In this document: positions 6,833 to 32,162 of the stretch, piece by piece | How the letters are laid out: each line of letters opens with the position of its first letter | How positions within the stretch are numbered: position 1 is the stretch's first letter | From: Actinomycetota bacterium | GTDB taxonomy: Bacteria > Actinomycetota > Acidimicrobiia > IMCC26256 > PALSA-610 | Assembly: GCA_052390615.1 (NCBI GenBank) | Contig: JBQTGT010000017.1 | Location: 70,536-134,535 of the forward strand | Length of the DNA stretch: 64,000 bases | Direction of reading: 5' to 3' | The notes under the pieces: generated by a model | The model's database searches: none | What the model was told of the DNA's origin: nothing | The model's input: only the letters and a program-made list of their open reading frames with translations | Translations under genes and position numbers: made by a program

Positions 6833-8031
6833 CAGCCGGCCCCTGCAAACGCGGCGATCTGGTCGGCCGAGTAGCCGAGCGCGCCGAAGATCTCGGCGTT
6901 GTGCTGTCCGGGCGCGGCGCGCGGCCCTTGGACCGCACCCGGCGTCCCGGCGAGGTGCAGCGGGACGCCGACCTGCGTGGTCGGGCCGTACTCCGGGTCG
7001 TCGACGGCGGCGATCATGCCGTTGGCCAACAGCTGCGGGTTGGGCGCGCCCGTCGCGCCGAGCGTCTCCTCCATCGGGACGATCGCTTCGACCGCGTGGT
7101 TGTTCTGGCGCATCTCCGCGATGAGCTTCTCGCGGTCGTGCTCCTTGTACGCGGCCCGGCGCTTCGGCGTGAGCGCCGCGCGCTCTTCGGGCGACAGCAG
7201 CGGATAGCGCGACGGATCGGTCGCTTCCGGCAGCCCCAGGATCTCGTCTTGACTCTTGATCGGTGCGAGGCCGCTCATGATCGACGTGTGCACCCACTGG
7301 TCGCCGGCCACGGCGAACACCATCTCCTGGTGTACGCCCGGCGGATACGACTTCACCATCCCGCCGTAGTACGCGGACGTCGCGCGCGGAATCCACGTCC
7401 AGATCTGCGTCGTGAACAAGCACGCGCCCTGGAACAGCGACGTGCGGACGTGCTGGCCCCGCCCGGTGGTTTCACGCGCGATCAGCGCGCTGAGAATGCC
7501 GGTCGGCACGAGGAACATCGCGGCCATGCTCGGCAGCGGCACGTGCAAGAAGATCGGCCCCATGCGCCACCCCGGCTGCTCCCACTGCTGGCCGCTGCTC
7601 GCCTGCACGAGGGCATCCCAACCCGGGCGGTCCGCGAGCCGGTGCCCTTCGGGATAGGCGGGACAGCTCGCGTACACGAGCCACGGGTTGCGTTCATGCA
7701 GCGCGTTGAATCCGATACCGAGCCGCTCGGTGACGCCGGGTCGGAACGTCTCCACAAGCACGTCGGCGGTGTCGACGAGCGTGCGGAACGCGTCGAGGCC
7801 GGCGGGGTTCTTCAGGTCGACCGTGACCGAGCGCTTCGAGCGGTCCCAGACGACAAACCCGCTGTAGTCGCGCAGCGGGCATCCGCCGGGCGGCTCGACC
7901 TTGACGACATCGGCGCCCTGCTCGGCGAGGAGCTGCACACCGAGCGATCCGGCGATCCCCCAGGACAGGTCCAACACTCGCAGTCCGTCGAGGGCGCCCG
8001 GCACGAGCGGGGATCTTACGCTTGGGCCCAT
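6832..8031 (-). CDS. CoA-transferase family III (CaiB/BaiF) protein
   Basis: ..LDGLRVLDLSWGIAGSLGVQLLAEQGADVVKVEPPGG... Start at MGPSV is approximate. Stop/start overlap with the downstream paralogous-family gene. Confidence 0.8.
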   Translation of the reverse strand: MGPSVRSPLVPGALDGLRVLDLSWGIAGSLGVQLLAEQGADVVKVEPPGGCPLRDYSGFVVWDRSKRSVTVDLKNPAGLDAFRTLVDTADVLVETFRPGVTERLGIGFNALHERNPWLVYASCPAYPEGHRLADRPGWDALVQASSGQQWEQPGWRMGPIFLHVPLPSMAAMFLVPTGILSALIARETTGRGQHVRTSLFQGACLFTTQIWTWIPRATSAYYGGMVKSYPPGVHQEMVFAVAGDQWVHTSIMSGLAPIKSQDEILGLPEATDPSRYPLLSPEERAALTPKRRAAYKEHDREKLIAEMRQNNHAVEAIVPMEETLGATGAPNPQLLANGMIAAVDDPEYGPTTQVGVPLHLAGTPGAVQGPRAAPGQHNAEIFGALGYSADQIAAFAGAG

Positions 8032-8486
8032 GGATGCCGTCCGCCGTCTCGAGATCATGGAAGCCGTGCGCGTCGTGAAGGCGCGCTACTTCCGTCACAT
8101 GGACCGCAAGGAGTGGGACGATTTCCGGGAGTTGTTCACGGACGACTTCGAGGCTGACGTCACCGACGACATGGTCGCCGCCGGGCTATCGCGCGATTCG
8201 GGGATACGCATCGGCGCCGACCGGTTCGTGCGCGGTGTCGTGCGCGCGCTCGAAGGCGTCCGCACGGTGCATCACGGACACATGCCCGAGATCGAGGTGC
8301 TCGACGACGAGCACGCGAGTGCGGTCTGGGCGATGGAGGACCGCCTGGATTATCCCGACGGCCGCGTGGTTACCGGCGGCCGGCCACTACTTCGAGGAGT
8401 ACCGCGTCGACGCGCGCGCCTGGCGCATGTCCACGATGCGCCTCTCCCGCCTCCGCATCGTCACCATTCCTTCACCCGAGCGCTGA
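8030..8486 (+). pseudogene. SnoaL_4/NTF2-like protein with apparent +1 frameshift near 8375-8384
   Basis: N-terminal part MDAVRRLEIMEAVRVVKARYFRHMDRKEWDDFRELFTDDF.. is in the frame of ORF 7901. The conserved C-terminal part ..GHYFEEYRVDARAWRMSTMRLSRLRIVT is in the frame of ORF 8235. The switch falls in the run ggcggccggcc. Confidence 0.55.
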
Positions 8487-8503
8487 ACGGGTCGGTGAAA
8501 TAC

Positions 8504-8558
8504 CCATCTGTTGGGTATCTCACGCACCGCTCCGGTGCGTGAGATACCCAACAGATGG
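8504..8558. terminator. 26-bp perfect hairpin with a 3-nt loop between convergent genes
   Basis: ccatctgttgggtatctcacgcaccg-ctc-cggtgcgtgagatacccaacagatgg read directly. Lies between the stops at 8486 (+) and 8571 (-). Confidence 0.5.
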
Positions 8559-8570
8559 TGCACTCGGCGA

Positions 8571-10850
8571 CTATTCGCTCTTGAGGGCGATGGCGATCTC
8601 GGCGCGGGCGGCGGTGTCGTCAGGGGGCGCGAGGGCGGGGATCTCGAACGTCACATGGTGCAGTGTCGCCGAGAATGGGAACGGCGGCTCGTACTCTCCG
8701 ACGACGGGGAACCCGCGGTCGTAGCCAATCGTCAGGCCCGCGCCGCCAATCTGCCAGCGAAATGGCAGCGTGTGCGCGACCTCGGCGCGCGCGACCTCGG
8801 CGCCGTCGACACACAACGTCCCGACGCCGCAGTCGTACGCGAACGACAGTTCGTGCGCGCCGGGTCCGATCGCGAGCGGTCCGTCGATCACTTGCGGGTG
8901 GCCGAACGCGTTGAACACGTGCACGAGCCGACCGTCCTTGACGTAGAACGCGATGCCGTTCGTCCAGTTGCCGAGCGCGTACAGGATCCCGCCGAGCGGC
9001 GAACCGTTCGCACCGACGTCAACCGCGGCCGTCGCGACGAACCCCGCGCCCAACGGCGGCATCAAGTCCTCTTGCACCGGTCCGCCTCCGGGCCGGTACA
9101 CCGTGCGATGGCGGGGCGCGTAGCGAGGCCGGAACATCGCCGATACCCGCCCGATGAACGTGTCGTCGAGTGGCAGTACGCCGTTGCGCCCGGCCTCGGT
9201 CCACCACCGGTCGACGAGCAGGCGCACGCGTTCGGGCTCGGCGGCCGCGAGGTCGTTGGCTTCCGAGAAGTCCTCGTCGATGTGAAAGAGCAACCATCGG
9301 TCTTCGCCGAAGTCGCCCCTGCTGCCTTCGACGAGTTCTTGTTCGACCGGGAGCTGCCGGCCGACATGGTCGGTGGTCGCCTTCCAACCGTCGTGGAAGA
9401 TCGCGCGGCTCCCCATCAGCTCGAAATACTGCGTGTCGCGCGGGGCGGGCACCGCCGCGTCCGCGAACGTCGCGGTCAGCGACGCGCCGTCGACACGAAG
9501 CTGTTCGACGCCGTCGACAATCGGCGCGGGCTCGATCCGCGCCGCGTCGAGAATCGTGGGCGTGAGATCGACCGCGTGGCAGAACTGGCTGCGCAGCTCG
9601 CCGCGCGCGTCGATGCCGTTCGGCCAGTGGACGACGAGCGGCGTGCGCGTCCCGCCGAGCCAGGTGTAGCGCTTCCACAGGCGCAGCGGTGTGTTGCCGG
9701 CCCACGCCCAACCCCACGCGTAGTGGTTGTACGCGCGAAACCCACCGAGCTCGTCAATCTTCGCGATGTTCTCGGCGAGGTCCTCGTGCAGGCCATGGAC
9801 GAACCGGTGCTCGTTCACCGAGCCGTACGGCCCGCCCTCGGCGCTCGTGCCGTTGTCGGAGATGAGCAACACGAGCGTGTCGTCGAGCACATCAGTGATG
9901 CGAAGGAAGTCGACGATGCGCCCGATCTGGCGGTCGGTGTGGGTCAGAAACCCGGCGAAGACCTCCATCATCCGCGCGTACACGCGGCGTTCGTCGGCCG
10001 CGAGTGAGTTCCACTCCTGCACCCATGACGGACGCGCGGTGAGCGTCGTTTCGGCCGGCACGACGCCGCTCGCGATCTGACGTTCGAAGACGCGTGCTCG
10101 CCACGAGTCCCAGCCGTCGTCGAAGGCGCCGCGATAGGGCTCGATCCATTCGGCGCCGACCTGGTGCGGCGCGTGCATTGCGCCCGTCGCGAAGTACAGA
10201 AAGAACGGCTTGCCCGGCGTCGACTGTTGTTGGTCCTGCACCATGCGAATGGTGCGATCGGCGAGATCTTCGGTGAGGTGGTAGCCGTCGGCCGCCGAAC
10301 GGGACGGCTCGACAGAGTGGTTGTCACATACCAGTTCGGGCGTGTACTGGTTGGTGTCGCCGCCGAGGAAGCCGTAGTAGCGCTCGAACCCCATCCCGAG
10401 CGGCCAGCGGTCGAACGGCCCCGACGCGCCCCACTCGTCGCGGGGCGCGAGATGCCACTTACCGACGGCGTAGGTCGAATAACCCGCGTCGCGCAAGTGG
10501 CGCGCCACCGTCGCGGCCGAGCGCGGCATCCGGCTGTGATACCCGGGAAACCTCACCGCGACTTCGGGGAGCAACCCCATCCCGACGGCATGGTGGTTGC
10601 GGCCGGTGAGCAGCGCCGCGCGCGTCGGCGAGCACATCGCCGTGACGTGAAAGCGGTTGTACCGCAACCCGCCCGCCGCCAGCGCGTCGATGTTCGGCGT
10701 CGCGATGTCGGAACCGAAGCAACCGAGCTGGCCGAAGCCGAGATCGTCGAGCACGACCACCATCACGTTCGGACCCGACGTGCGCCCGCGCGACGGCTGT
10801 GGGAACGGCGTCGATTCGGCGATTGTCGGTCCGATGTGCACGCGACTCAC
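8571..10850 (-). CDS. Arylsulfatase (Cys-type, formylglycine-dependent) with C-terminal extra domain
   Basis: 759 aa. ..VVVLDDLGFGQLGCFGS.. and the CSPTRAALLTGR signature. Confidence 0.9.
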   Translation of the reverse strand: MSRVHIGPTIAESTPFPQPSRGRTSGPNVMVVVLDDLGFGQLGCFGSDIATPNIDALAAGGLRYNRFHVTAMCSPTRAALLTGRNHHAVGMGLLPEVAVRFPGYHSRMPRSAATVARHLRDAGYSTYAVGKWHLAPRDEWGASGPFDRWPLGMGFERYYGFLGGDTNQYTPELVCDNHSVEPSRSAADGYHLTEDLADRTIRMVQDQQQSTPGKPFFLYFATGAMHAPHQVGAEWIEPYRGAFDDGWDSWRARVFERQIASGVVPAETTLTARPSWVQEWNSLAADERRVYARMMEVFAGFLTHTDRQIGRIVDFLRITDVLDDTLVLLISDNGTSAEGGPYGSVNEHRFVHGLHEDLAENIAKIDELGGFRAYNHYAWGWAWAGNTPLRLWKRYTWLGGTRTPLVVHWPNGIDARGELRSQFCHAVDLTPTILDAARIEPAPIVDGVEQLRVDGASLTATFADAAVPAPRDTQYFELMGSRAIFHDGWKATTDHVGRQLPVEQELVEGSRGDFGEDRWLLFHIDEDFSEANDLAAAEPERVRLLVDRWWTEAGRNGVLPLDDTFIGRVSAMFRPRYAPRHRTVYRPGGGPVQEDLMPPLGAGFVATAAVDVGANGSPLGGILYALGNWTNGIAFYVKDGRLVHVFNAFGHPQVIDGPLAIGPGAHELSFAYDCGVGTLCVDGAEVARAEVAHTLPFRWQIGGAGLTIGYDRGFPVVGEYEPPFPFSATLHHVTFEIPALAPPDDTAARAEIAIALKSE

Positions 10851-24992: not shown

Positions 24993-27791
24993 CTACGGCA
25001 CGAGGCGCAGCGGGTTCCCGTCGCCCGTGTGCCACTCACTGTGGCGGTTGATGTACGTTGCGTCGATTGCATCGCGGGGCAGTGCCCCGGCGCCGCCCCG
25101 CACCAGACCCTCCATCTGGGCAACCGATTGCGTCGTGACACCGGCCGCGGGCAGTTCGCGCGCTTCGGTTCCCCGCGCCGAGTTGGCGGCCTTGGCCGCG
25201 CCGCGGTATTCGATGCCGGTCACGTACACGCGCGCCTCGTTGGTCTTGACGTTGAGTGCGTTGGCCGGCTTGCGGAACCTCTCGTTCGCATAGTCGCTGT
25301 ACCCGAAGATCGAGTTGACCACGTTGCCGGACGAGCCGTCTTCGTACCGAACGCCCCACATCGTCCAGTCCTCGACGATGTTGTTGCGGAAGTCGACGAA
25401 CGCGCCGTTCGCCAGGGGACCGCGAATCCACTGCTTCATCACCCACGTGTGGTGAATCGAGACGTTGGTCACGCCGTCGTACTTGATGAAGATCGACCGC
25501 GTGTTCCCCGCGAGAAACGAGTACTGCACGGTGACGTCGTGCGCGCCGTACCCGATCGATATCCCGTCGTCATACGCGCCCGTCGAGGAGATGTGGCTGA
25601 ACACGACGTGATGCGCACCGGTCCCCTGGGCGCGCAGATTGTCGCCGCCGTTGCGCACCCGCATGTCGCGCACGATGACATCGTGGCTCCGAACGTCGAG
25701 CACGGCCGCGGCCGAGCGCGAGAGCGACGGACCGGCGATCAGGGTGACGCCGTTCCCTTCGATTGTCAGGTTGTTCGCTTCGACCTTGAGGGTGGAGTTC
25801 ACCACGATCGGACCCATGACGGCGAAGACGACCCGCGACTTCTTTCCCGCCTTGCTGTTGACCTTCGCCTTCGCGAGCGCGGCCTTGACTGCGTCGCTCG
25901 TCGGCGCGGCCACTGTGACAACCTCCCCGCCCGCGCCACCGGCGGTCGCGCCGAAACCCTCGAGCGGCTCGCTCCCCGTTGAGCCGGGTGGCGCAGCCGG
26001 CGGCGCGACCGTGCCGACCACGACCGTCGTCGTCGCTGTCGTCGAGTGCACCCCCGCGCGCATGGTCACCGTCACGGTGTACGTCCCGGCCTTCGCGTAC
26101 GTGTGGGTTGTCAAAGGTCCGTTCGACGGTTCCGCCGCGCCCGGCTTCTTGAACATCGGTTGGTACGCGGGAATCGCGCACTTGTACTTGGAGAGCTTCG
26201 CCTTGGCTTCGTCACGGTTCTCCGACGTCCCGTTCGCGCTCGCCAGTGATCCGAACCCGCCGAGCTCGGCTTGCTTCATGCCGTCGAGGCTGTACAGAAA
26301 CGCCTTCTCGTAGCGCGCGCACCCGTCGAGACCGTGGACCGAAGCGCTGTTGTACAGGTAGAGCGCGCCGAGGTCGTGGCCGAGCTTCATCAGGTAGTAG
26401 CGCGACACCTCGTCAATGCGCGTGAACTTCCCGCTCTTCGCGCTGAACGGCGACGTCGCCGTCACTGCCGTGAGCGCATCGAACTGGTACGCGGCGTCGA
26501 GATACATGACGATCGACGCGCCCTTGTGACCGTCCTCGCGTACGTCGTCGGCACGATCGTACGCATCGCGAGCGGACCTGATCGCGGCGGCCGGATCGGC
26601 GGGCACGGGGGGTAGCGGTGCGCTCGCGGTGCCGTCGCCGAAGTCGAACGCGTACGAGAGCGCGTCGCCGTCGGGATCGGAGGACGCCGACGCATCGACG
26701 GTGACGTTGATCGGCGCGGCCCCGCCCGGCGGCGTGACGGTCACGACCGCGATTGGCGGCCGGTTCCCGGGCGGCACGGTGGTCGGAGGCGGTGGCGCGG
26801 TCGTGGTTGTCGTGGTGGCGGGAGCCGTTGTGGTCGTCGGCGCCACGGTGGTGGTCGTCGTCGAAGTCGGCGGGGAGGTCGTGGGGGAAGTCGTCGGGGA
26901 AGTCGCGGGGGAAGTCGTCGGCGACGAGGGGGCGCGTCGCCACGCGACCGCGATGCCGCCCGGGCCGGAACCGGCGTCCAGCGGTACCAGCCACGACGGT
27001 TCCGCGACAAACGCCGCACCCGCATTGCGGAACGCGCCGACGAGCTGGGCACCGCTGTCGACAACGAGTGCGTCGGCGCGGCCGTCGCCGTCGAGCGGCA
27101 CGAGCGCGACCGCGACGTTGGTGCCAAGGACTGGCAGGTCCCATGCGGGCGTGAGCACGAACGGATTCGGCGCGGCGCCGGTGTTGAGATAGCCGATTGG
27201 GTTCCCGGAGCGACCGACCAACAGGTCGGCGCGGCCGTCGCCGTCCAGATCGCCCGCGCCCGGCCGCGCGAAGCCGCCGAGATCACCGAGGCTCCACGCA
27301 GGTTGGTCGACCCATACTGGTGCCGACACGCTGCCGGTGTTCTGCAGCGCGTCGACGACCCCGGTCGAGTTGCCGACGAGCGCGTCGAGGTCACCGTCGC
27401 CGTCGACGTCGATGAGGGCCGGCGCGGCCTGCGTCCCGAAGTCGATTCCCGGCTCCCACGCCGGTGTTGCGCTCCATGCCGGCGCGGCCGCGCTGCCGGT
27501 GTCGCGGTACGCGCGCACGAGACCCCCGGCTTCTCCGATCAGCGCGTCGAGGTCCCCGTCGTCGTCGAGGTCGCCGAAGGTCGGGAACGCGGACGAGCCG
27601 ATATCGGGGAGGCCGAGTGCAGGCGAGGCCGTCCACGCTCCGCCTGGGCCCGCGCTCGTGAACGCGAGGCTGTTCCCGGAGGACATCCCCACGTAGACGA
27701 CGAGGGAGGATCCCGGTGATGGGCTGGATTCAAGCGCACCACCGGCGAGTGGCAGCGCGACGAGTACCGCCACGAGGGATCCGACTTGCAT
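24993..27791 (-). CDS. Secreted multidomain protein, paralog 2 (same architecture)
   Basis: Signal ..RHRGRRMQVGSLVAVLVALPLAGGA, with a possible GTG start at 27827. FG-GAP motifs, long Pro/Thr linker, ..YAFDFGDG.. and ..THTYAKAGTYTVTVT.., and the same beta-helix motifs as paralog 1. Confidence 0.85.
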   Translation of the reverse strand: MQVGSLVAVLVALPLAGGALESSPSPGSSLVVYVGMSSGNSLAFTSAGPGGAWTASPALGLPDIGSSAFPTFGDLDDDGDLDALIGEAGGLVRAYRDTGSAAAPAWSATPAWEPGIDFGTQAAPALIDVDGDGDLDALVGNSTGVVDALQNTGSVSAPVWVDQPAWSLGDLGGFARPGAGDLDGDGRADLLVGRSGNPIGYLNTGAAPNPFVLTPAWDLPVLGTNVAVALVPLDGDGRADALVVDSGAQLVGAFRNAGAAFVAEPSWLVPLDAGSGPGGIAVAWRRAPSSPTTSPATSPTTSPTTSPPTSTTTTTVAPTTTTAPATTTTTTAPPPPTTVPPGNRPPIAVVTVTPPGGAAPINVTVDASASSDPDGDALSYAFDFGDGTASAPLPPVPADPAAAIRSARDAYDRADDVREDGHKGASIVMYLDAAYQFDALTAVTATSPFSAKSGKFTRIDEVSRYYLMKLGHDLGALYLYNSASVHGLDGCARYEKAFLYSLDGMKQAELGGFGSLASANGTSENRDEAKAKLSKYKCAIPAYQPMFKKPGAAEPSNGPLTTHTYAKAGTYTVTVTMRAGVHSTTATTTVVVGTVAPPAAPPGSTGSEPLEGFGATAGGAGGEVVTVAAPTSDAVKAALAKAKVNSKAGKKSRVVFAVMGPIVVNSTLKVEANNLTIEGNGVTLIAGPSLSRSAAAVLDVRSHDVIVRDMRVRNGGDNLRAQGTGAHHVVFSHISSTGAYDDGISIGYGAHDVTVQYSFLAGNTRSIFIKYDGVTNVSIHHTWVMKQWIRGPLANGAFVDFRNNIVEDWTMWGVRYEDGSSGNVVNSIFGYSDYANERFRKPANALNVKTNEARVYVTGIEYRGAAKAANSARGTEARELPAAGVTTQSVAQMEGLVRGGAGALPRDAIDATYINRHSEWHTGDGNPLRLVP
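26864..26923. repeat. Five tandem 12-nt units (gaagtcgNSggg-like) encoding the TSP[TA] linker of paralog 2
   Basis: Units gaagtcggcggg/gaggtcgtgggg/gaagtcgtcggg/gaagtcgcgggg/gaagtcgtcggc read directly. The minus strand encodes ..TTSPATSPTTSPTTSPPTS... Confidence 0.7.
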
Positions 27792-28122
27792 TCGCCGTCC
27801 GCGATGACGAGCGCGAGCGCCAGGCACAAAGTCCCCCCATCTCGTGCCTCGCAGCTCGGTCCCGCTGTGGTTATCGTCACATCGCGTCGCGATGCTTGAA
27901 TGGCGCGTGGTCTGGATCACCGACATGGGTGTCCCCATCTCGGCTGGGACCTCGCCGAGGCGCTCGTCGTCGAAGACGAGCTCGTCCGCCCGGGACACGG
28001 CTGGCCGTTCGACTGTGCCGGACGCGCGCAGAAACGCGCTCGAGGGCCCGGTTCCGACGGTCCGCATCGACAGCGTCGGTGACGACGCGCGCGTCTGCGC
28101 GCAGAACTCGTGACCGCGGCCG

Positions 28123-29376
28123 TCAGTTCGGCGTGAACACCACCGGTAAGTGCGATACGGTCGTCACGAGCGAGTTCGGCGCGCGCTCGGCCGAGGCATC
28201 GGGTCCCACCCGCAGATCGGGCAGTCGCGTGAACAGCTCCTCCAGGAGGATCCGAATCTCGGTCCGAGCCAGGTTGGCGCCCAGACAGAAATGCGGCCCG
28301 GTGCCGAACGCGAGATGCAGGTTAGGAGCTCGATCGACGCGGAACTCGTGCGGATCGTCGAACACGTCCGCATCACGATTTGCCGACGGATAGACGTTCA
28401 GGAGCACGTCGCCCTCGCGCAGCGCCCGACCGCGGAGTTCGGTCGCGGCCGTGACCGTGCGAGAAAAGCTGATCACCGGCGAGACGTAGCGCAGGATCTC
28501 TTCGGTCGCGCTGTTCACGAGCGAGAGGTCGGCGACAAGCCGCGCGCGTTGGTCCGGAAAGGTCGAAAGCGCTTCGATTCCGCCCGACAGCGCGTTGCGT
28601 GTCGTCTCGTTCCCGGCAACAAGCAGGAGCACGCAGAACGCGAGCACGTGGTCGCCTTCCAGGCCCATGTCGGTGACCGCGCCGGATTGCAGCTGCTCCT
28701 GGAGCCGATCCTCGTTGAATTCGATCTCGCCCGCGTCGGCCGAAGACAGCAACACCGAGATGAGGTCGTCGCGCGGGTGACGGCGGCGTTCCTCGACGAG
28801 CACCATCAGGTATGTGACGTAGTCGGCCCACGCTTCGCCGGCGGCCACGATGCGCGGGTCCTCACCCTCGGCACCTTCGGCGCTCATCATCGTGTCCGAC
28901 CAGCGGCCCAACTGTTCGCGGTCCGCGGGCGGCAAGCCGAGCAGCTCGGCGATGACGATCAGCGGCAGCGGCCGGGCAATGTCGACGACGAAATCACACT
29001 CACCGCGCCCGGCAACCGCGTCGACCAGCGCGCGGGCGACTTCGCGGATGTGGTCGAACATTTCGTTGATTCGCGACGGCGTGAACCCTCGGCTGACGAG
29101 CTTGCGGTGGCGGGCGTGCTCGGGGTCGTCCATCGACACGATCGACAGGTCACCACCGCCGCCACCCTTCGGTCGCACGCCTTGTGCACTCGAGAACAGC
29201 TCCGGATGTCGTTCGACGTGCGCGACGTCGTCGTACTTGGAAACGACCCAGATTCCGTTGCGGTCGTCCCAGTGCACGGGATCGTTGGCCCGCAGCCAAT
29301 CGAACACGTCATGGGCCACGCCCCGCACGTAGAGCGTGGGGTCGAGCGCGTCGGGCTCGAATGCAGACGTCGTCAT
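28123..29376 (-). CDS. Cytochrome P450
   Basis: Trimmed to MTTSAFEPDALDPTLY... AGNETTRN, EEILRY, heme motif FGTGPHFCLGANLAR. Confidence 0.9.
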   Translation of the reverse strand: MTTSAFEPDALDPTLYVRGVAHDVFDWLRANDPVHWDDRNGIWVVSKYDDVAHVERHPELFSSAQGVRPKGGGGGDLSIVSMDDPEHARHRKLVSRGFTPSRINEMFDHIREVARALVDAVAGRGECDFVVDIARPLPLIVIAELLGLPPADREQLGRWSDTMMSAEGAEGEDPRIVAAGEAWADYVTYLMVLVEERRRHPRDDLISVLLSSADAGEIEFNEDRLQEQLQSGAVTDMGLEGDHVLAFCVLLLVAGNETTRNALSGGIEALSTFPDQRARLVADLSLVNSATEEILRYVSPVISFSRTVTAATELRGRALREGDVLLNVYPSANRDADVFDDPHEFRVDRAPNLHLAFGTGPHFCLGANLARTEIRILLEELFTRLPDLRVGPDASAERAPNSLVTTVSHLPVVFTPN

Positions 29377-29954
29377 CCGTGATCCTTGTCGAGTCGAGCG
29401 AAGACCTGGCCCAGCTCGCGCGCACTCGCCGCGAGCGCGCGCCGCCGGCCGTCGGGTTGCGGGAGGTGTTCGAGCATCACGCCGTAGAGCGCGTGGCGCA
29501 GCGCGCGAACGACGGCCCGGTCGTGCAATACCGGCGCGTCCGGCAGCAGCTGGCGAATCCACGTCGCCAACGCGCTCTCGAACGCAGCGCTCGTTTCGAG
29601 CAAGGGTTGGAGGACATCGTCGTCGCCGTGGATTGCCTCGGCGAGCAGTGTGCGCCAGAGGTCGTCGTCCGCGGCCATGCCGATGAACAGGTGGTCGACC
29701 AACGCGCCCAGGCGCTCGGCGACCGTGCCGGGGAGCCCTTCGGGGAAGGGGACCGTGAACAGCTCGCCCGCCAGCCGGTGCGCGATCGCGGCCTGGCAGA
29801 GGTCGCGCTTGGACGAGAAATAGTGGTAGAGCGTGGCGACGTTGCAGCCGCACCGCTGCGCGACAGCCCGCATGCTGGTGCCGCGCGCGCCGTGCTGGGC
29901 CATCAGGCCGAGGGTGGCGTCGAGGATGCGCGCCGGCTGATCCACACCCGGCAC
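29373..29954 (-). CDS. TetR family transcriptional regulator
   Basis: 193 aa. ..ILDATLGLMAQHGARGTSMRAVAQRCGCNVATLYHYFSSKRDL... ATGA overlap with the P450. Confidence 0.85.
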   Translation of the reverse strand: MPGVDQPARILDATLGLMAQHGARGTSMRAVAQRCGCNVATLYHYFSSKRDLCQAAIAHRLAGELFTVPFPEGLPGTVAERLGALVDHLFIGMAADDDLWRTLLAEAIHGDDDVLQPLLETSAAFESALATWIRQLLPDAPVLHDRAVVRALRHALYGVMLEHLPQPDGRRRALAASARELGQVFARLDKDHG

Positions 29955-29961
29955 TCTCTAT

Positions 29962-29975
29962 CAAACGTTCGTTTG
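29962..29975. promoter_or_regulatory. Candidate TetR operator palindrome caaacgttcgtttg
   Basis: 6-bp arms with a 2-nt centre, 8 nt upstream of the TetR GTG start in the divergent TetR/Nudix intergenic region. Confidence 0.35.
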
Positions 29976-30035
29976 GGTCAAGGCCTGGACCAGGCACCTT
30001 GTTTCCGCTCAGAATGAGTATTAGACCGGCGAGCC

Positions 30036-30761
30036 GTGGAGGAATTTCCTTCGATCGCGGTGACGGTCGACGCCGTCGTGTGCACCGTCGCGGGCGGGCG
30101 GCTCGCGGTGCTGCTCGTGCAGCGCGCCAACGACCCGTTCCGCGGCGGCTGGGCGCTGCCCGGCGGCTTCGTCGAGCCCGACGAGGATCTCGACGTCGCG
30201 GCGCGCCGCGAGCTCGCCGAGGAAACGGGCGTGTCGATCGGCGGCGAAATGTCAGCGCCACACGCGGGCGGTCTCGGACACATCGAACAGCTCCGCACTT
30301 ACGGCGCGCAAGGTCGCGATCCACGCGGGCGCACGGTGTCGGTCGCGTACGTGGGATTCACTGCCCGTACCGACGTCGTCGCCGGTTCCGACGCGGCCGA
30401 CTCGCGCTTTTGGGCGGTCGATGACCTCTCGATCCCGTCGATCGGCACGGCGGATGGCGTTCCGCTCGCGTTCGACCATGCGCGGATCGTTGCCGACGGT
30501 GTCGAGCGGGCGCGTTCCAAGCTCGAATACACGACGCTGGCGACCGCATTCCTCGACGAGCCGTTCACACTCGGCGAACTGCGCCGCGTGTACGAAGCGG
30601 TGTGGGGCGATGCGCTGCACGAAGGGAACTTTCGCCGCAAAGTGTTGTCGACGCAGGGCTTCGTCGAGCCCACTGGCGAAACCGCGCCGACTGAGGGCCG
30701 CCCGGCCGCGCTGTACCGCCGTGGCGCGGCGACGCGACTGCACCCGCCGATCCTGCGCTGA
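30036..30761 (+). CDS. NrtR-like protein: Nudix hydrolase domain plus C-terminal winged-helix domain
   Basis: Intact Nudix box GGFVEPDEDLDVAARRELAEETGV. C-terminal ..YTTLATAFLDEPFTLGELRRVYEAVWG..GNFRRKV.. is typical of NrtR wHTH. Confidence 0.75.
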   Translation: MEEFPSIAVTVDAVVCTVAGGRLAVLLVQRANDPFRGGWALPGGFVEPDEDLDVAARRELAEETGVSIGGEMSAPHAGGLGHIEQLRTYGAQGRDPRGRTVSVAYVGFTARTDVVAGSDAADSRFWAVDDLSIPSIGTADGVPLAFDHARIVADGVERARSKLEYTTLATAFLDEPFTLGELRRVYEAVWGDALHEGNFRRKVLSTQGFVEPTGETAPTEGRPAALYRRGAATRLHPPILR

Positions 30762-31633
30762 TGCGTTCCGGGGCCTTTCCGGGTTCGTTCGATCCACCGA
30801 CGATCGCGCACCTCGCGATCGCACACGCAGCGGTGGACGCCGCGCGCCTCGATCGTCTCGACTTCGTCCTGTCGCGTGTCGCCCTCGGCAAGGAGAACCG
30901 GGGCGAGGCCGACAGCCGCGCCGCGACCCTCGAACAGCTCGCGACAACACGGCCGTGGCTCGGCGTACGCATCACCGACGACCAGCTCATCGTCGACATC
31001 GCGCGCGGCTACGACGTCGTCGTGATGGGCGCCGACAAGTGGACAGAAGTGCGGGATCCCGCGTGGTACGGGTCCGCGGCGGCCCGGGACGACGCGCTCG
31101 CTCGGCTGCCACGCGTTCTCGTCGTGCCCCGGTCGGGAATCGCGATCGAGGCGGCGGAGGTGCTCGACCTCGCCGATGACTTGGATCATGTCTCTTCGAC
31201 GGCCGCGCGCGCGGGCGCGCAGGTCCTGGTGGCGCCCGAGCTGCGGTCCCGGTTGCTCGTCGACGTCATGAACGTCATCGGGAGCCGGCCCGACGGCTGG
31301 TGGAAGGACCGGGACGGCGCCGCGCGCCGGTTGATCCGCTCGCTCCAAGCGCGCGCCCGTCGCACAGGCGAACGGATTGCGGCCGTACTCGACGGCCGCG
31401 CCCTGCCGGACCTTCCCGAAGGGGTCCACGACGGCGTGCTCGTGGCGTACGCGACGCGCCGCGGCCGCGATGCGGCCGACGACCGCATCGTTTCGGAGGT
31501 CGAACGCGACCGCGACCCTGCGTCGTTGACGGTTGTGACGTCGGATAGAAGGCTGCGCGAACGGGTGCAGGCGCTGGGCGCACAGGTCGCGCCAGCCAGC
31601 TCCGTCATCGATCGGGGATCGGCATCCCGGTAA
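30761..31633 (+). CDS. Fusion protein: NadD/NMNAT-like nucleotidyltransferase plus YacP/NYN-like domain
   Basis: N-terminal GSFDPPTIAHL (HxGH-type) and VSSTAAR (ISSTxxR-type) motifs. C-terminal ..VMNVIGSRPDGWW..VLDG..DAADDRIV..LTVVTSDRRLRERV..GAQV.. is NYN_YacP-like. TGATG overlap with the Nudix gene. Confidence 0.7.
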   Translation: MRSGAFPGSFDPPTIAHLAIAHAAVDAARLDRLDFVLSRVALGKENRGEADSRAATLEQLATTRPWLGVRITDDQLIVDIARGYDVVVMGADKWTEVRDPAWYGSAAARDDALARLPRVLVVPRSGIAIEAAEVLDLADDLDHVSSTAARAGAQVLVAPELRSRLLVDVMNVIGSRPDGWWKDRDGAARRLIRSLQARARRTGERIAAVLDGRALPDLPEGVHDGVLVAYATRRGRDAADDRIVSEVERDRDPASLTVVTSDRRLRERVQALGAQVAPASSVIDRGSASR

Positions 31634-32162
31634 CGCCGTCGTCGCGCTCGACGCGGAACGCATTCAGCGCCATCGAGACGAGGTGGTACTGACCGACGGT
31701 GAACACGACGTCGAGTAGCTGCTGCGCGTCATAGCGCGCGGCGAGGGCGGCGTACGTGGCGTCGGTGAGCGTCATCTTGTCGTGGAGCTCGTCCGCGGCC
31801 CGCACGAGCATCGCATCGAAGGGATCCCATCCCGGCGTCTCCGGGCCGATCGCGATGCGCTCGATCTCGTCGTCAGTGATTCCTGCGGCACGCGCGATGA
31901 CGATGTGCTGGCCCCACTCGTACGGCGCCCGGCACCGCCAACCGGTGCGCAAGATCAGTATCTCTCGATCGCGCGCCGACAATGTGCTCTTGCCGAGCAC
32001 GTGCGTTCCGAACACAAGCCAGCGCTTCAACAACTTCGGATGGTGCGCGAGCGTGCCGAAGATGTTGAGCACCTTCCCGCCGCCCTCGTCGGGCGCGAGG
32101 ATGGCATGGACCTCGGCGTCCCACTCCTCGGGGGGCAGGGGCTCGAGCCGCGGGTCAGACAC
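31605..32162 (-). CDS. Carboxymuconolactone decarboxylase (AhpD-like) family protein
   Basis: 185 aa. ..FGTLAHHPKLLKRW..REILILRTGWRCRAPYEWGQH... Confidence 0.85.
   Translation of the reverse strand: MSDPRLEPLPPEEWDAEVHAILAPDEGGGKVLNIFGTLAHHPKLLKRWLVFGTHVLGKSTLSARDREILILRTGWRCRAPYEWGQHIVIARAAGITDDEIERIAIGPETPGWDPFDAMLVRAADELHDKMTLTDATYAALAARYDAQQLLDVVFTVGQYHLVSMALNAFRVERDDGVTGMPIPDR

Follow-up and report, generated by a model that had tools for sequence, protein, structure and literature searches.

A NadD/PPAT-like nucleotidyltransferase joined to a Rae1/YacP-type NYN domain and encoded behind an NrtR-family regulator in an Actinomycetota bacterium

The regulons governed by NrtR and the NadD enzymes are well understood, and the NrtR repressors that have been characterised are released from DNA by ADP-ribose, a breakdown product of nicotinamide adenine dinucleotide (NAD). 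Known NrtR operons carry nadD in an equivalent place, as in pncB-nadD-nrtR-nadE (cyanobacteria), nrtR-pncA-pncB-nadD-nadE (Clostridium) and nrtR-nadD (Pseudomonas), and the hallmark of the NrtR operator is a 21-bp palindromic symmetry, usually with the core GT-N7-AC (Rodionov et al. 2008, PMC2330246). The ribosome-associated endoribonuclease Rae1/YacP has been tied to mRNA cutting only recently, in work (PMC12407103, PMC13622287) that puts it at stalled or collided ribosomes. This report describes a locus in which members of these families stand together. It lies in a stretch of 64,000 nucleotides (hereafter the window) from an uncultured soil Actinomycetota bacterium of the class Acidimicrobiia (GenBank assembly GCA_052390615.1, contig JBQTGT010000017.1, positions 70,536 to 134,535) and comprises, at window positions 30036-31633, a gene for an NrtR-family regulator followed by a gene for a protein that joins a NadD/PPAT-like nucleotidyltransferase domain to a Rae1/YacP-type NYN (PIN-like) ribonuclease (RNase) domain. 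Such a coupling, which sometimes ends a niacin-salvage operon under a repressor responsive to NAD status, is explained by neither field.

The individual modules and the linkage of nrtR with nadD are already known; what is new is the coupling of the transferase with the NYN domain. Full-text literature searches found no description of this architecture, which is recorded only in automatic annotations (for instance, in JGI, ‘nicotinic acid mononucleotide adenylyltransferase/predicted RNA-binding protein with PIN domain’), and the remark in an earlier note on this DNA that the arrangement was not one known to be characterised agrees with this. The locus is read here, with moderate confidence, as an autoregulated two-gene operon for an NrtR-repressed, salvage-linked adenylyltransferase paralogue that acts on nicotinate or nicotinamide mononucleotide (NaMN or NMN) and is coupled to an RNase. 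The operon, nrtR and then the fusion gene, would be repressed by its own first product, which would bind a 21-bp palindrome at 30003-30023 predicted from comparative genomics; ADP-ribose, the effector expected from knowledge of the family, would free NrtR and allow both genes to be expressed, translation of the fusion being coupled to that of nrtR through the TGATG overlap of the two genes. The transferase, as its fold and gene context suggest, would follow PncA and PncB in niacin salvage and adenylylate NaMN or NMN, and the NYN domain, judging from its conservation, would cut RNA as an endoribonuclease of the Rae1/YacP type. The best guess is that RNase activity or targeting may be tied to the binding of a pyridine nucleotide or ATP by the transferase domain.

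The regulator gene (ORF1, open reading frame 1; 30036-30761, + strand) starts with GTG and encodes 241 residues of a Nudix-related transcriptional regulator, and the fusion gene (ORF2; 30761-31633, + strand) starts with ATG and encodes 290 residues carrying the nucleotidyltransferase and NYN_YacP domains. One base is common to the nrtR stop TGA (30759-30761) and the fusion start ATG (30761-30763), which gives the TGATG read in the sequence at 30759-30763 (+). In relatives the two genes either overlap by 4 nt or are 2-17 nt apart. Both reading frames and this junction are as the earlier note had described them from the sequence and its translations. A homologue search with the fusion protein returned 756 matches, the best 120 of which are all two-domain proteins at 62-72% identity, mostly from soil metagenomes and metagenome-assembled genomes of Acidimicrobiia or Actinomycetota. 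These two-domain homologues, together with invariant catalytic-type residues in both halves, indicate that both ORFs are genuine genes and not chance ORFs.

That the two modules act together is most strongly supported by their natural fission and fusion. The fused form is found in the window and in 14 other full-length loci, and the transferase and NYN domains are separate, adjacent genes in five loci from independent assemblies: with a GTGA stop/start overlap in L005 (5241-5381) and L089 (1998-2138), with an overlap of about 26 nt in L003 and L004 (6420-6560 in each) and with a 90-nt gap in L083 (3600-3800). The modules are thus kept either fused or as adjacent coupled genes. The distribution of the fused form is narrow. 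Among 1615 matching proteins in a library of 50%-identity representatives, P0121 is the only full-length representative with both domains; P0122 and P0124 match both halves of the query and look partial (Pfam detected no domain in P0124, the one of the two that was scanned), and the remaining matches carry one domain alone, as transferases of 165-250 aa or short NYN proteins of 120-180 aa. Within this library, the fused form does not extend beyond a narrow Acidimicrobiia-like clade, roughly one 50%-identity cluster.

These data bear on the proposal that the fusion is the sole housekeeping NadD of these organisms and the NYN domain an unrelated passenger. No second HxGH/TxGH motif was found in the 64-kb window, as that proposal would have it, a result uninformative about the rest of the genome. 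The restriction of the fused form to about one 50%-identity cluster, the varying architecture of the locus, the great divergence of the fusion from NadD equivalogs and the translational coupling of the split genes, unexpected for a passenger, make it most unlikely. Should the transferase prove to be a standard NaMN adenylyltransferase and the RNase a passenger unconnected with it, what remains would be an annotation note.

The linker between the two domains is variable in length, as eight homologues (P0032, P0040, P0059, P0078, P0091, P0095, P0114 and P0115) carry 1-4 extra tandem copies of the 8-residue unit PEAR(D/H)(V/L/F)(I/V)(V/A) at alignment columns 175-200. A 554-aa protein that appeared to be a triple fusion of Nudix, transferase and NYN (P0177; L163 6001-7665) was set aside: its Nudix part is a patch of 94 NrtR residues at 69% identity with no winged helix. 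It shares its ENA assembly series (ERZ250395xx) with L078, in which pncB and nrtR are each in two pieces (7358-8687 and 9238-10004), and P0177 and the split L078 genes are most likely frameshift artefacts and not biology.

The transferase domain occupies residues 1-162 of the fusion protein (30761-31246, +) and is defined by a Pfam match, fold matches and invariant motifs. Pfam matches were scored throughout against gathering cut-offs and NCBIfam equivalogs against curated cut-offs. CTP_transf_like (PF01467) scores 29.9 bits against a cut-off of 21 over residues 6-150. The motifs are GSFDPPTIAH at residues 8-17 (30782-30811), in which Thr stands for the first His and Ala for the Gly of the HxGH motif, LGK44, GADKW...W102Y and VSSTAAR at residues 144-150 (SSTAAR at 31193-31210). 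Across 37 fusion homologues P7, G8, F10, D11, P12, T14, A16, H17, K44, G90, D92, K93, W94, W102, Y103, S145, S146 and R150 are invariant, and the motif residues are also kept in the split and stand-alone relatives; the domain accordingly looks like a catalytically active member of the HxGH/TxGH superfamily. An AlphaFold model of the whole fusion protein has a mean pLDDT of 89.8 and a pTM of 0.77. In Foldseek the 17 top matches of the transferase domain are all NadD structures (E 2e-7 to 4e-6, target TM 0.55-0.70), the best being 3dv2, 1kaq and 5deo, the NadD proteins of Bacillus, Mycobacterium and Enterococcus (E 2e-7 to 1e-6, TM 0.6-0.7), with PPAT close behind (E 5e-6, TM 0.67). NadD models are also the best-scoring NCBIfam models for the family, and, by eye, the GADKW...WY segment recalls the GxD...W element found in NadD/NMNAT.

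Stand-alone transferases of this family (L006-L034; 165-190 aa, 40-56% identity) occur in Acidimicrobiales, for example in L016 (823-1377 and 1421-2284). A CN-hydrolase gene comes after them in nine loci, and they are found near genes for class-III aminotransferases and for alanine-dehydrogenase-like and ABC-permease-like proteins (the latter two named from sequence only).

The C-terminal domain (residues 163-285; 31247-31615, +) is a Rae1/YacP-type NYN domain by Pfam, fold and acidic residues. NYN_YacP (PF05991) scores 32.3 bits against a cut-off of 24.6 over residues 165-281, and the motifs by which this domain was first recognised in the earlier note (VIGSRPDGWW, VLDG, DAADDRIV and VVTSDRRL) are all present in ORF2. 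A separate model of residues 162-290 (pLDDT 90.5) matches 5mq9_A, Bacillus subtilis Rae1/YacP (also 5mq8), at E 3.8e-6 with a query TM of 0.73 and 24% identity, and Foldseek gave no other match below E 1e-2. A family profile that includes the stand-alone relatives matches Rae1 at E 5e-11 over residues 4-130; with the single sequence, a search of the PDB gave only spurious matches to lipoyl domains, so that Rae1 was reached only with the profile. Residue D168 aligns with the VDGYN motif of Rae1, D211 with VFD, D240/D241 with TADE and D262 with TSD, and all five are invariant in the 37 fusion homologues, the D211 position being Glu in some stand-alone relatives. The active site of NYN_YacP proteins has been proposed to consist of four conserved acidic (Asp) residues (Matelska et al. 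2017, PMC5499597). As the metal-binding aspartates are intact, the domain is probably an active endoribonuclease. At the position of the DGYN motif the window protein has D-V-M-N and its relatives D-G-N-N or D-G-M-N, only the Asn being invariant. The C-terminal basic helices of Rae1 have no counterpart: the Pfam match takes in positions 1-122 of the 166 in the profile, Rae1 residues 131-181 are unmatched and the fusion protein ends about 8 residues past the NYN domain. The YacP-type assignment of the earlier note is upheld by PF05991, by Rae1 as the sole fold match and by the aligned Asp residues.

Stand-alone short NYN_YacP genes (about 125 aa; L035-L074 and L091-L158) are found mostly in Solirubrobacterales. 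They lie directly downstream of a ribosome-rescue gene with an RF-1 domain (ArfB-like) in 14 loci, as in L067 (5585-5998 and 5995-6372), and near an FtsH-like gene (again named from sequence only) in 18 loci. This neighbourhood suggests a role of the short NYN family in ribosome rescue, which fits the placement of Rae1 at stalled or collided ribosomes. Other partners were seen as well, namely transferase with α/β-hydrolase, transferase with GNAT acetyltransferase and α/β-hydrolase with NYN (P0188, which is L164 4001-5503; P0154; and P0257, which is L166 191-1477). A three-way link through the α/β-hydrolase fusions (P0188 and P0257) was considered and nothing is inferred from it, the hydrolase domains being 26% identical and their neighbourhoods unrelated.

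The product of the first gene carries a NUDIX domain (PF00293; 71.8 bits against a cut-off of 21.1, residues 13-131, 7e-20) and an NrtR_WHD winged helix (PF21906; residues 172-228, 30549-30719, +; 63.5 bits against a cut-off of 27, 2e-17). The Nudix box GFVEPDEDLDVAARRELAEETGV, read from the translation (residues 44-66; 30165-30233, +), is intact, with every position of the signature GX5EX7REUXEEXGU filled (G44, E50, R58-E59, E62-E63 and G65), a state that in some NrtR proteins goes with ADP-ribose pyrophosphatase activity (Rodionov et al. 2008, PMC2330246). Among solved structures the protein is closest to Shewanella oneidensis NrtR (3GZ5/3GZ6), with a full-length alignment over residues 4-228 at E 1e-29, and an alignment was obtained with 2FML, an NrtR-family structure from Enterococcus, as well. 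Against NF050029, the ADP-ribose-responsive repressor that is the one NrtR equivalog of NCBI, the score is 126 bits, below the cut-off of 400, which places the protein in the NrtR family outside that equivalog subgroup. Its domains and alignments make the ORF1 product a true member of the NrtR family; an intact Nudix box and a C-terminal NrtR winged helix had been recognised in the earlier note, and both assignments are borne out by the Pfam domains and the 3GZ5/3GZ6 alignment.

At its start (30036-30070) the window NrtR lacks about 11 N-terminal residues, with the motif ‘FLAxYDPxxYP’, that are present in all close relatives, and about 14 N-terminal residues of Shewanella NrtR (3GZ5) are unmatched in it. 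A longer nrtR ORF is ruled out by the in-frame stop at 30015-30017.

A search for an operator upstream of nrtR, which the earlier note had suggested, yielded a conserved 21-bp imperfect palindrome, TTCCGCTCAGAATGAGTATTA, at 30003-30023, 12 nt before the nrtR GTG. It was found by aligning the nrtR upstream regions of the window and related loci, and the search pattern was built from these same sites, whose consensus is TTMYRCTCA-N3-YGAGYRGAA. At up to 3 mismatches the site is unique in the window (chance expectation 0.02), and 1.29 Mb of fetched DNA holds eight such sites, six of which are directly upstream of nrtR or pncB. In nine loci, the window included, the nrtR-containing operon has the palindrome ahead of its first gene: the site stands just upstream of nrtR in the window and in L001, L002, L085 (with 4 mismatches), L086, L160 (more degenerate) and L161, and before pncB, 9-20 nt from its start codon, in L078 and L162, where no site is found before nrtR itself. 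This move to the first gene of the operon is the behaviour expected of the operator of the operon's own repressor, and the palindrome is a probable NrtR operator. Its reading as an RNA hairpin was rejected, since the outer positions of the window site do not keep pairing and the variation is non-compensatory.

Gene order among the relatives falls into two types. In type A (10 loci, among them the five with split genes) a Rieske gene and two 4HBT thioesterase genes are followed by the fusion, which starts 0-40 nt past the second thioesterase gene, and then by a CMD-family gene on the opposite strand. In type B (the window, eight fetched loci and three JGI contigs) the same backbone has a P450(-)-TetR(-)-nrtR(+) block inserted just before the fusion, and in L078 and L162, two independent genomes, pncB and pncA stand ahead of nrtR, which makes pncB-pncA-nrtR-fusion operons with overlapping stops and starts. 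The fusion is the only candidate NAD gene of the operon in the window. The assignment of the transferase as a NaMN/NMN adenylyltransferase draws on this context, because NrtR operons elsewhere carry nadD in the same position. The link of the fusion with NrtR envisaged in the earlier note is seen in the nrtR-bearing loci, where the two genes are tightly coupled, and does not extend to the family as a whole, being clade-specific.

Several observations weigh against an NAD-salvage enzyme under NrtR. The transferase scores 37-40 bits against the NadD equivalog TIGR00482, below the cut-off of 112.45 and with only the first ~70 residues aligned (the stand-alone homologues are likewise sub-threshold); a family profile run against the PDB gives PPAT a slight lead (30 bits over the N-terminal 90 residues, as against 27.6 bits over residues 3-156 for B. 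subtilis NadD); the domain is PPAT-like in the Thr of its first motif and in its size (~160 aa); and a profile of its substrate-side half (residues 62-160) finds no PDB relative, so that the substrate is not assignable by homology. No NAD gene was detected within 4.5 kb on each side of the stand-alone transferases, and nrtR is absent from 10 of the 24 family loci whose upstream context could be read, where the two thioesterase genes precede instead. The core of the palindrome is CT-N7-AG, not the usual GT-N7-AC, and its right arm overlaps a purine-rich sequence resembling a ribosome-binding site or a -10 element, which could explain part of its conservation.

The motifs (H/T)xGH and ISSTxxR are common to the whole HxGH/TxGH superfamily, PPAT included, and therefore do not discriminate between NadD and PPAT. 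With the CoaD/PPAT equivalog TIGR01510 also missed (28.6-30.6 bits, cut-off 103.3), the sub-cut-off scores and the unmatched residues 62-160 point to a distinct branch of the superfamily. The label ‘NadD-like’ is fair and ‘NadD’ is not established: of the earlier assignment as a NaMN/NMN adenylyltransferase, the motifs, PF01467 and the NadD-like fold stand, and the identity as an enzyme of NAD synthesis needs to be qualified.

A rival explanation is a transferase outside NAD metabolism, either PPAT-like or of another kind, for example related to coenzyme A (CoA) or acyl-CoA metabolism. The ancestral unit would then be thioesterase-thioesterase-[transferase+NYN], into which a P450-TetR-(pncB-pncA)-nrtR block was inserted in one sub-clade, control by NrtR being a by-product of read-through. 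The Rieske-4HBT-4HBT-fusion backbone without nrtR in 10 loci, the exact placement of the P450/TetR/nrtR block between backbone genes in others, the TxAH motif in place of HxGH, the PPAT chains at the top of the PDB profile search and, on inspection of the alignment, a PPAT-like size and short beta3-beta4 connection all agree with this explanation. It is nonetheless rather unlikely, given that in every nrtR-bearing locus the fusion overlaps nrtR or follows it within 17 nt, that in two genomes the fusion is the last gene of a pncB-pncA-nrtR operon whose one predicted operator lies upstream, that NadD outranks PPAT in Foldseek and NCBIfam, that the GADKW...WY segment is like the NadD/NMNAT GxD...W element (an unscored reading of the alignment) and that the CoaD cut-off is missed by the wider margin (31 vs 103 bits).

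The conserved fusion and fission of the modules, the fairly confident inter-domain arrangement in the model (pTM 0.77) and an NYN domain so short, without the Rae1 C-terminal extension, that it might need a partner domain would also suit a transferase fold that serves mainly as a nucleotide sensor (of ATP, NAD, nicotinate adenine dinucleotide or ADP-ribose) and gates the RNase, so that RNA turnover or translation is adjusted to NAD status. T14, H17, K44 and SSTxxR are invariant even in stand-alone homologues, which argues for catalysis and not mere binding, and no precedent was found; the sensor is considered quite unlikely. A further proposal is that the enzyme acts on RNA 5' ends, with pppA-RNA replacing ATP for the addition of NMN or NaMN (post-transcriptional NAD capping) or with cofactor-capped ends delivered to the NYN nuclease. 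One member of the superfamily, Escherichia coli PPAT, takes pppA-RNA in place of ATP in vitro (PMC10761072), and here a member is covalently joined to an RNase domain; the proposal is pure analogy, however, with no specific sequence sign of RNA binding by the transferase domain, and is very unlikely. In its fullest form, a cofactor-cap enzyme (for NMN/NaMN capping or NAD-cap docking) and a Rae1-like nuclease would act on the same RNA and be induced, through the ADP-ribose-sensing repressor, when NAD is consumed, a speculation of very low probability. The salvage-linked adenylyltransferase coupled to an RNase under NrtR is the reading retained here.

Upstream of nrtR in the window lies a divergent TetR gene (29373-29954, -), with a P450 gene upstream of it in turn, and a convergent CMD-family gene (31605-32162, -) lies downstream of the fusion gene. 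The 3' ends of the fusion and CMD-family genes overlap by 29 nt (31605-31633), with similar overlaps of 22-32 nt in L078, L160 and three JGI contigs. A second palindrome, CAAACGTTCGTTTG, at 29962-29975, whose two halves form a perfect inverted repeat (CAAACG-TT-CGTTTG), lies 8 nt from where the divergent TetR gene starts; every related locus with a TetR gene keeps it, L032 and L086 in duplicate, and L001 lacks it. This repeat was rejected as an NrtR box, as it occurs only alongside the TetR gene, is absent from L001 and stays by TetR when pncB-pncA intervene, and is probably the TetR operator of the TetR-P450 unit. In relatives a Rieske-4HBT-4HBT block stands before the P450 gene; it is absent from the window at 24993-28123, a Rieske-like remnant of 38 residues (27927-28040, +) being its only detectable trace, and that stretch is occupied by an ORF of 1024 aa (24993-28067, -) with Asp/Gly-rich repeats and a Thr/Pro-rich linker. 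A scan of 29850-31750 gave no match to a sigma-70 promoter, and the single ‘terminator’ candidate in the same region, a GCCTGG/CCAGGC palindrome between the two predicted operators, is no more than chance expectation. The fusion protein matches no defence system in PADLOC.

The locus offers a concrete candidate link between pyridine-nucleotide metabolism and RNA processing, which might take the form of an NAD-dependent control of RNA decay or of the enzymatic making or recognition of cofactor-capped RNA. The analysis also defines three entities unnamed by current equivalog models: a divergent transferase family (signature YPGSFDPPTIAH ... GADKWxQVxDPxWY ... VSSTxAR), a short actinobacterial NYN family (signature GSRPDGWW) and a new, predicted variant of the NrtR operator.

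Among described systems, the NrtR-controlled NAD operons (PMC2330246) share with this locus a Nudix and winged-helix regulator co-encoded with a (putative) adenylyltransferase, the presence of pncB and pncA in two relatives and a 21-bp palindrome before the first gene; unlike theirs, the transferase here is a non-canonical NadD (below the equivalog cut-off, with TxAH and ~160 aa) with a C-terminal NYN domain, the core of the predicted operator is CT-N7-AG, the Nudix box of the window NrtR is intact and the window operon holds no other NAD gene. With B. subtilis Rae1/YacP (5MQ8/5MQ9) the NYN domain shares the NYN_YacP fold and aligned acidic active-site residues; it differs in being 24% identical, in lacking the C-terminal basic helical extension of ~50 residues, in its family-specific RPDGWW insertion, in having DVMN or DGNN for DGYN and in being fused or coupled to a nucleotidyltransferase, whereas Rae1 is a stand-alone protein encoded in a tRNA/rRNA-processing operon. 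CoaD/PPAT resembles the transferase in size, in the Thr of the first motif and in comparable profile and fold scores, and is set apart from it by the missed CoaD cut-off, the different GADKW...WY segment and a gene context that points to NAD. Finally, NadM-Nudix (NMN adenylyltransferase/ADP-ribose pyrophosphatase; 2QJO, 2QJT) and enterobacterial NadR show that adenylyltransferases of the NAD pathway are often joined to a second module, and the Nudix domain of NadM is homologous to that of the window regulator; here, in contrast, the Nudix domain sits on a separate regulator, the transferase belongs to another branch (not GRFQPFHxGH) and its partner is an RNase.

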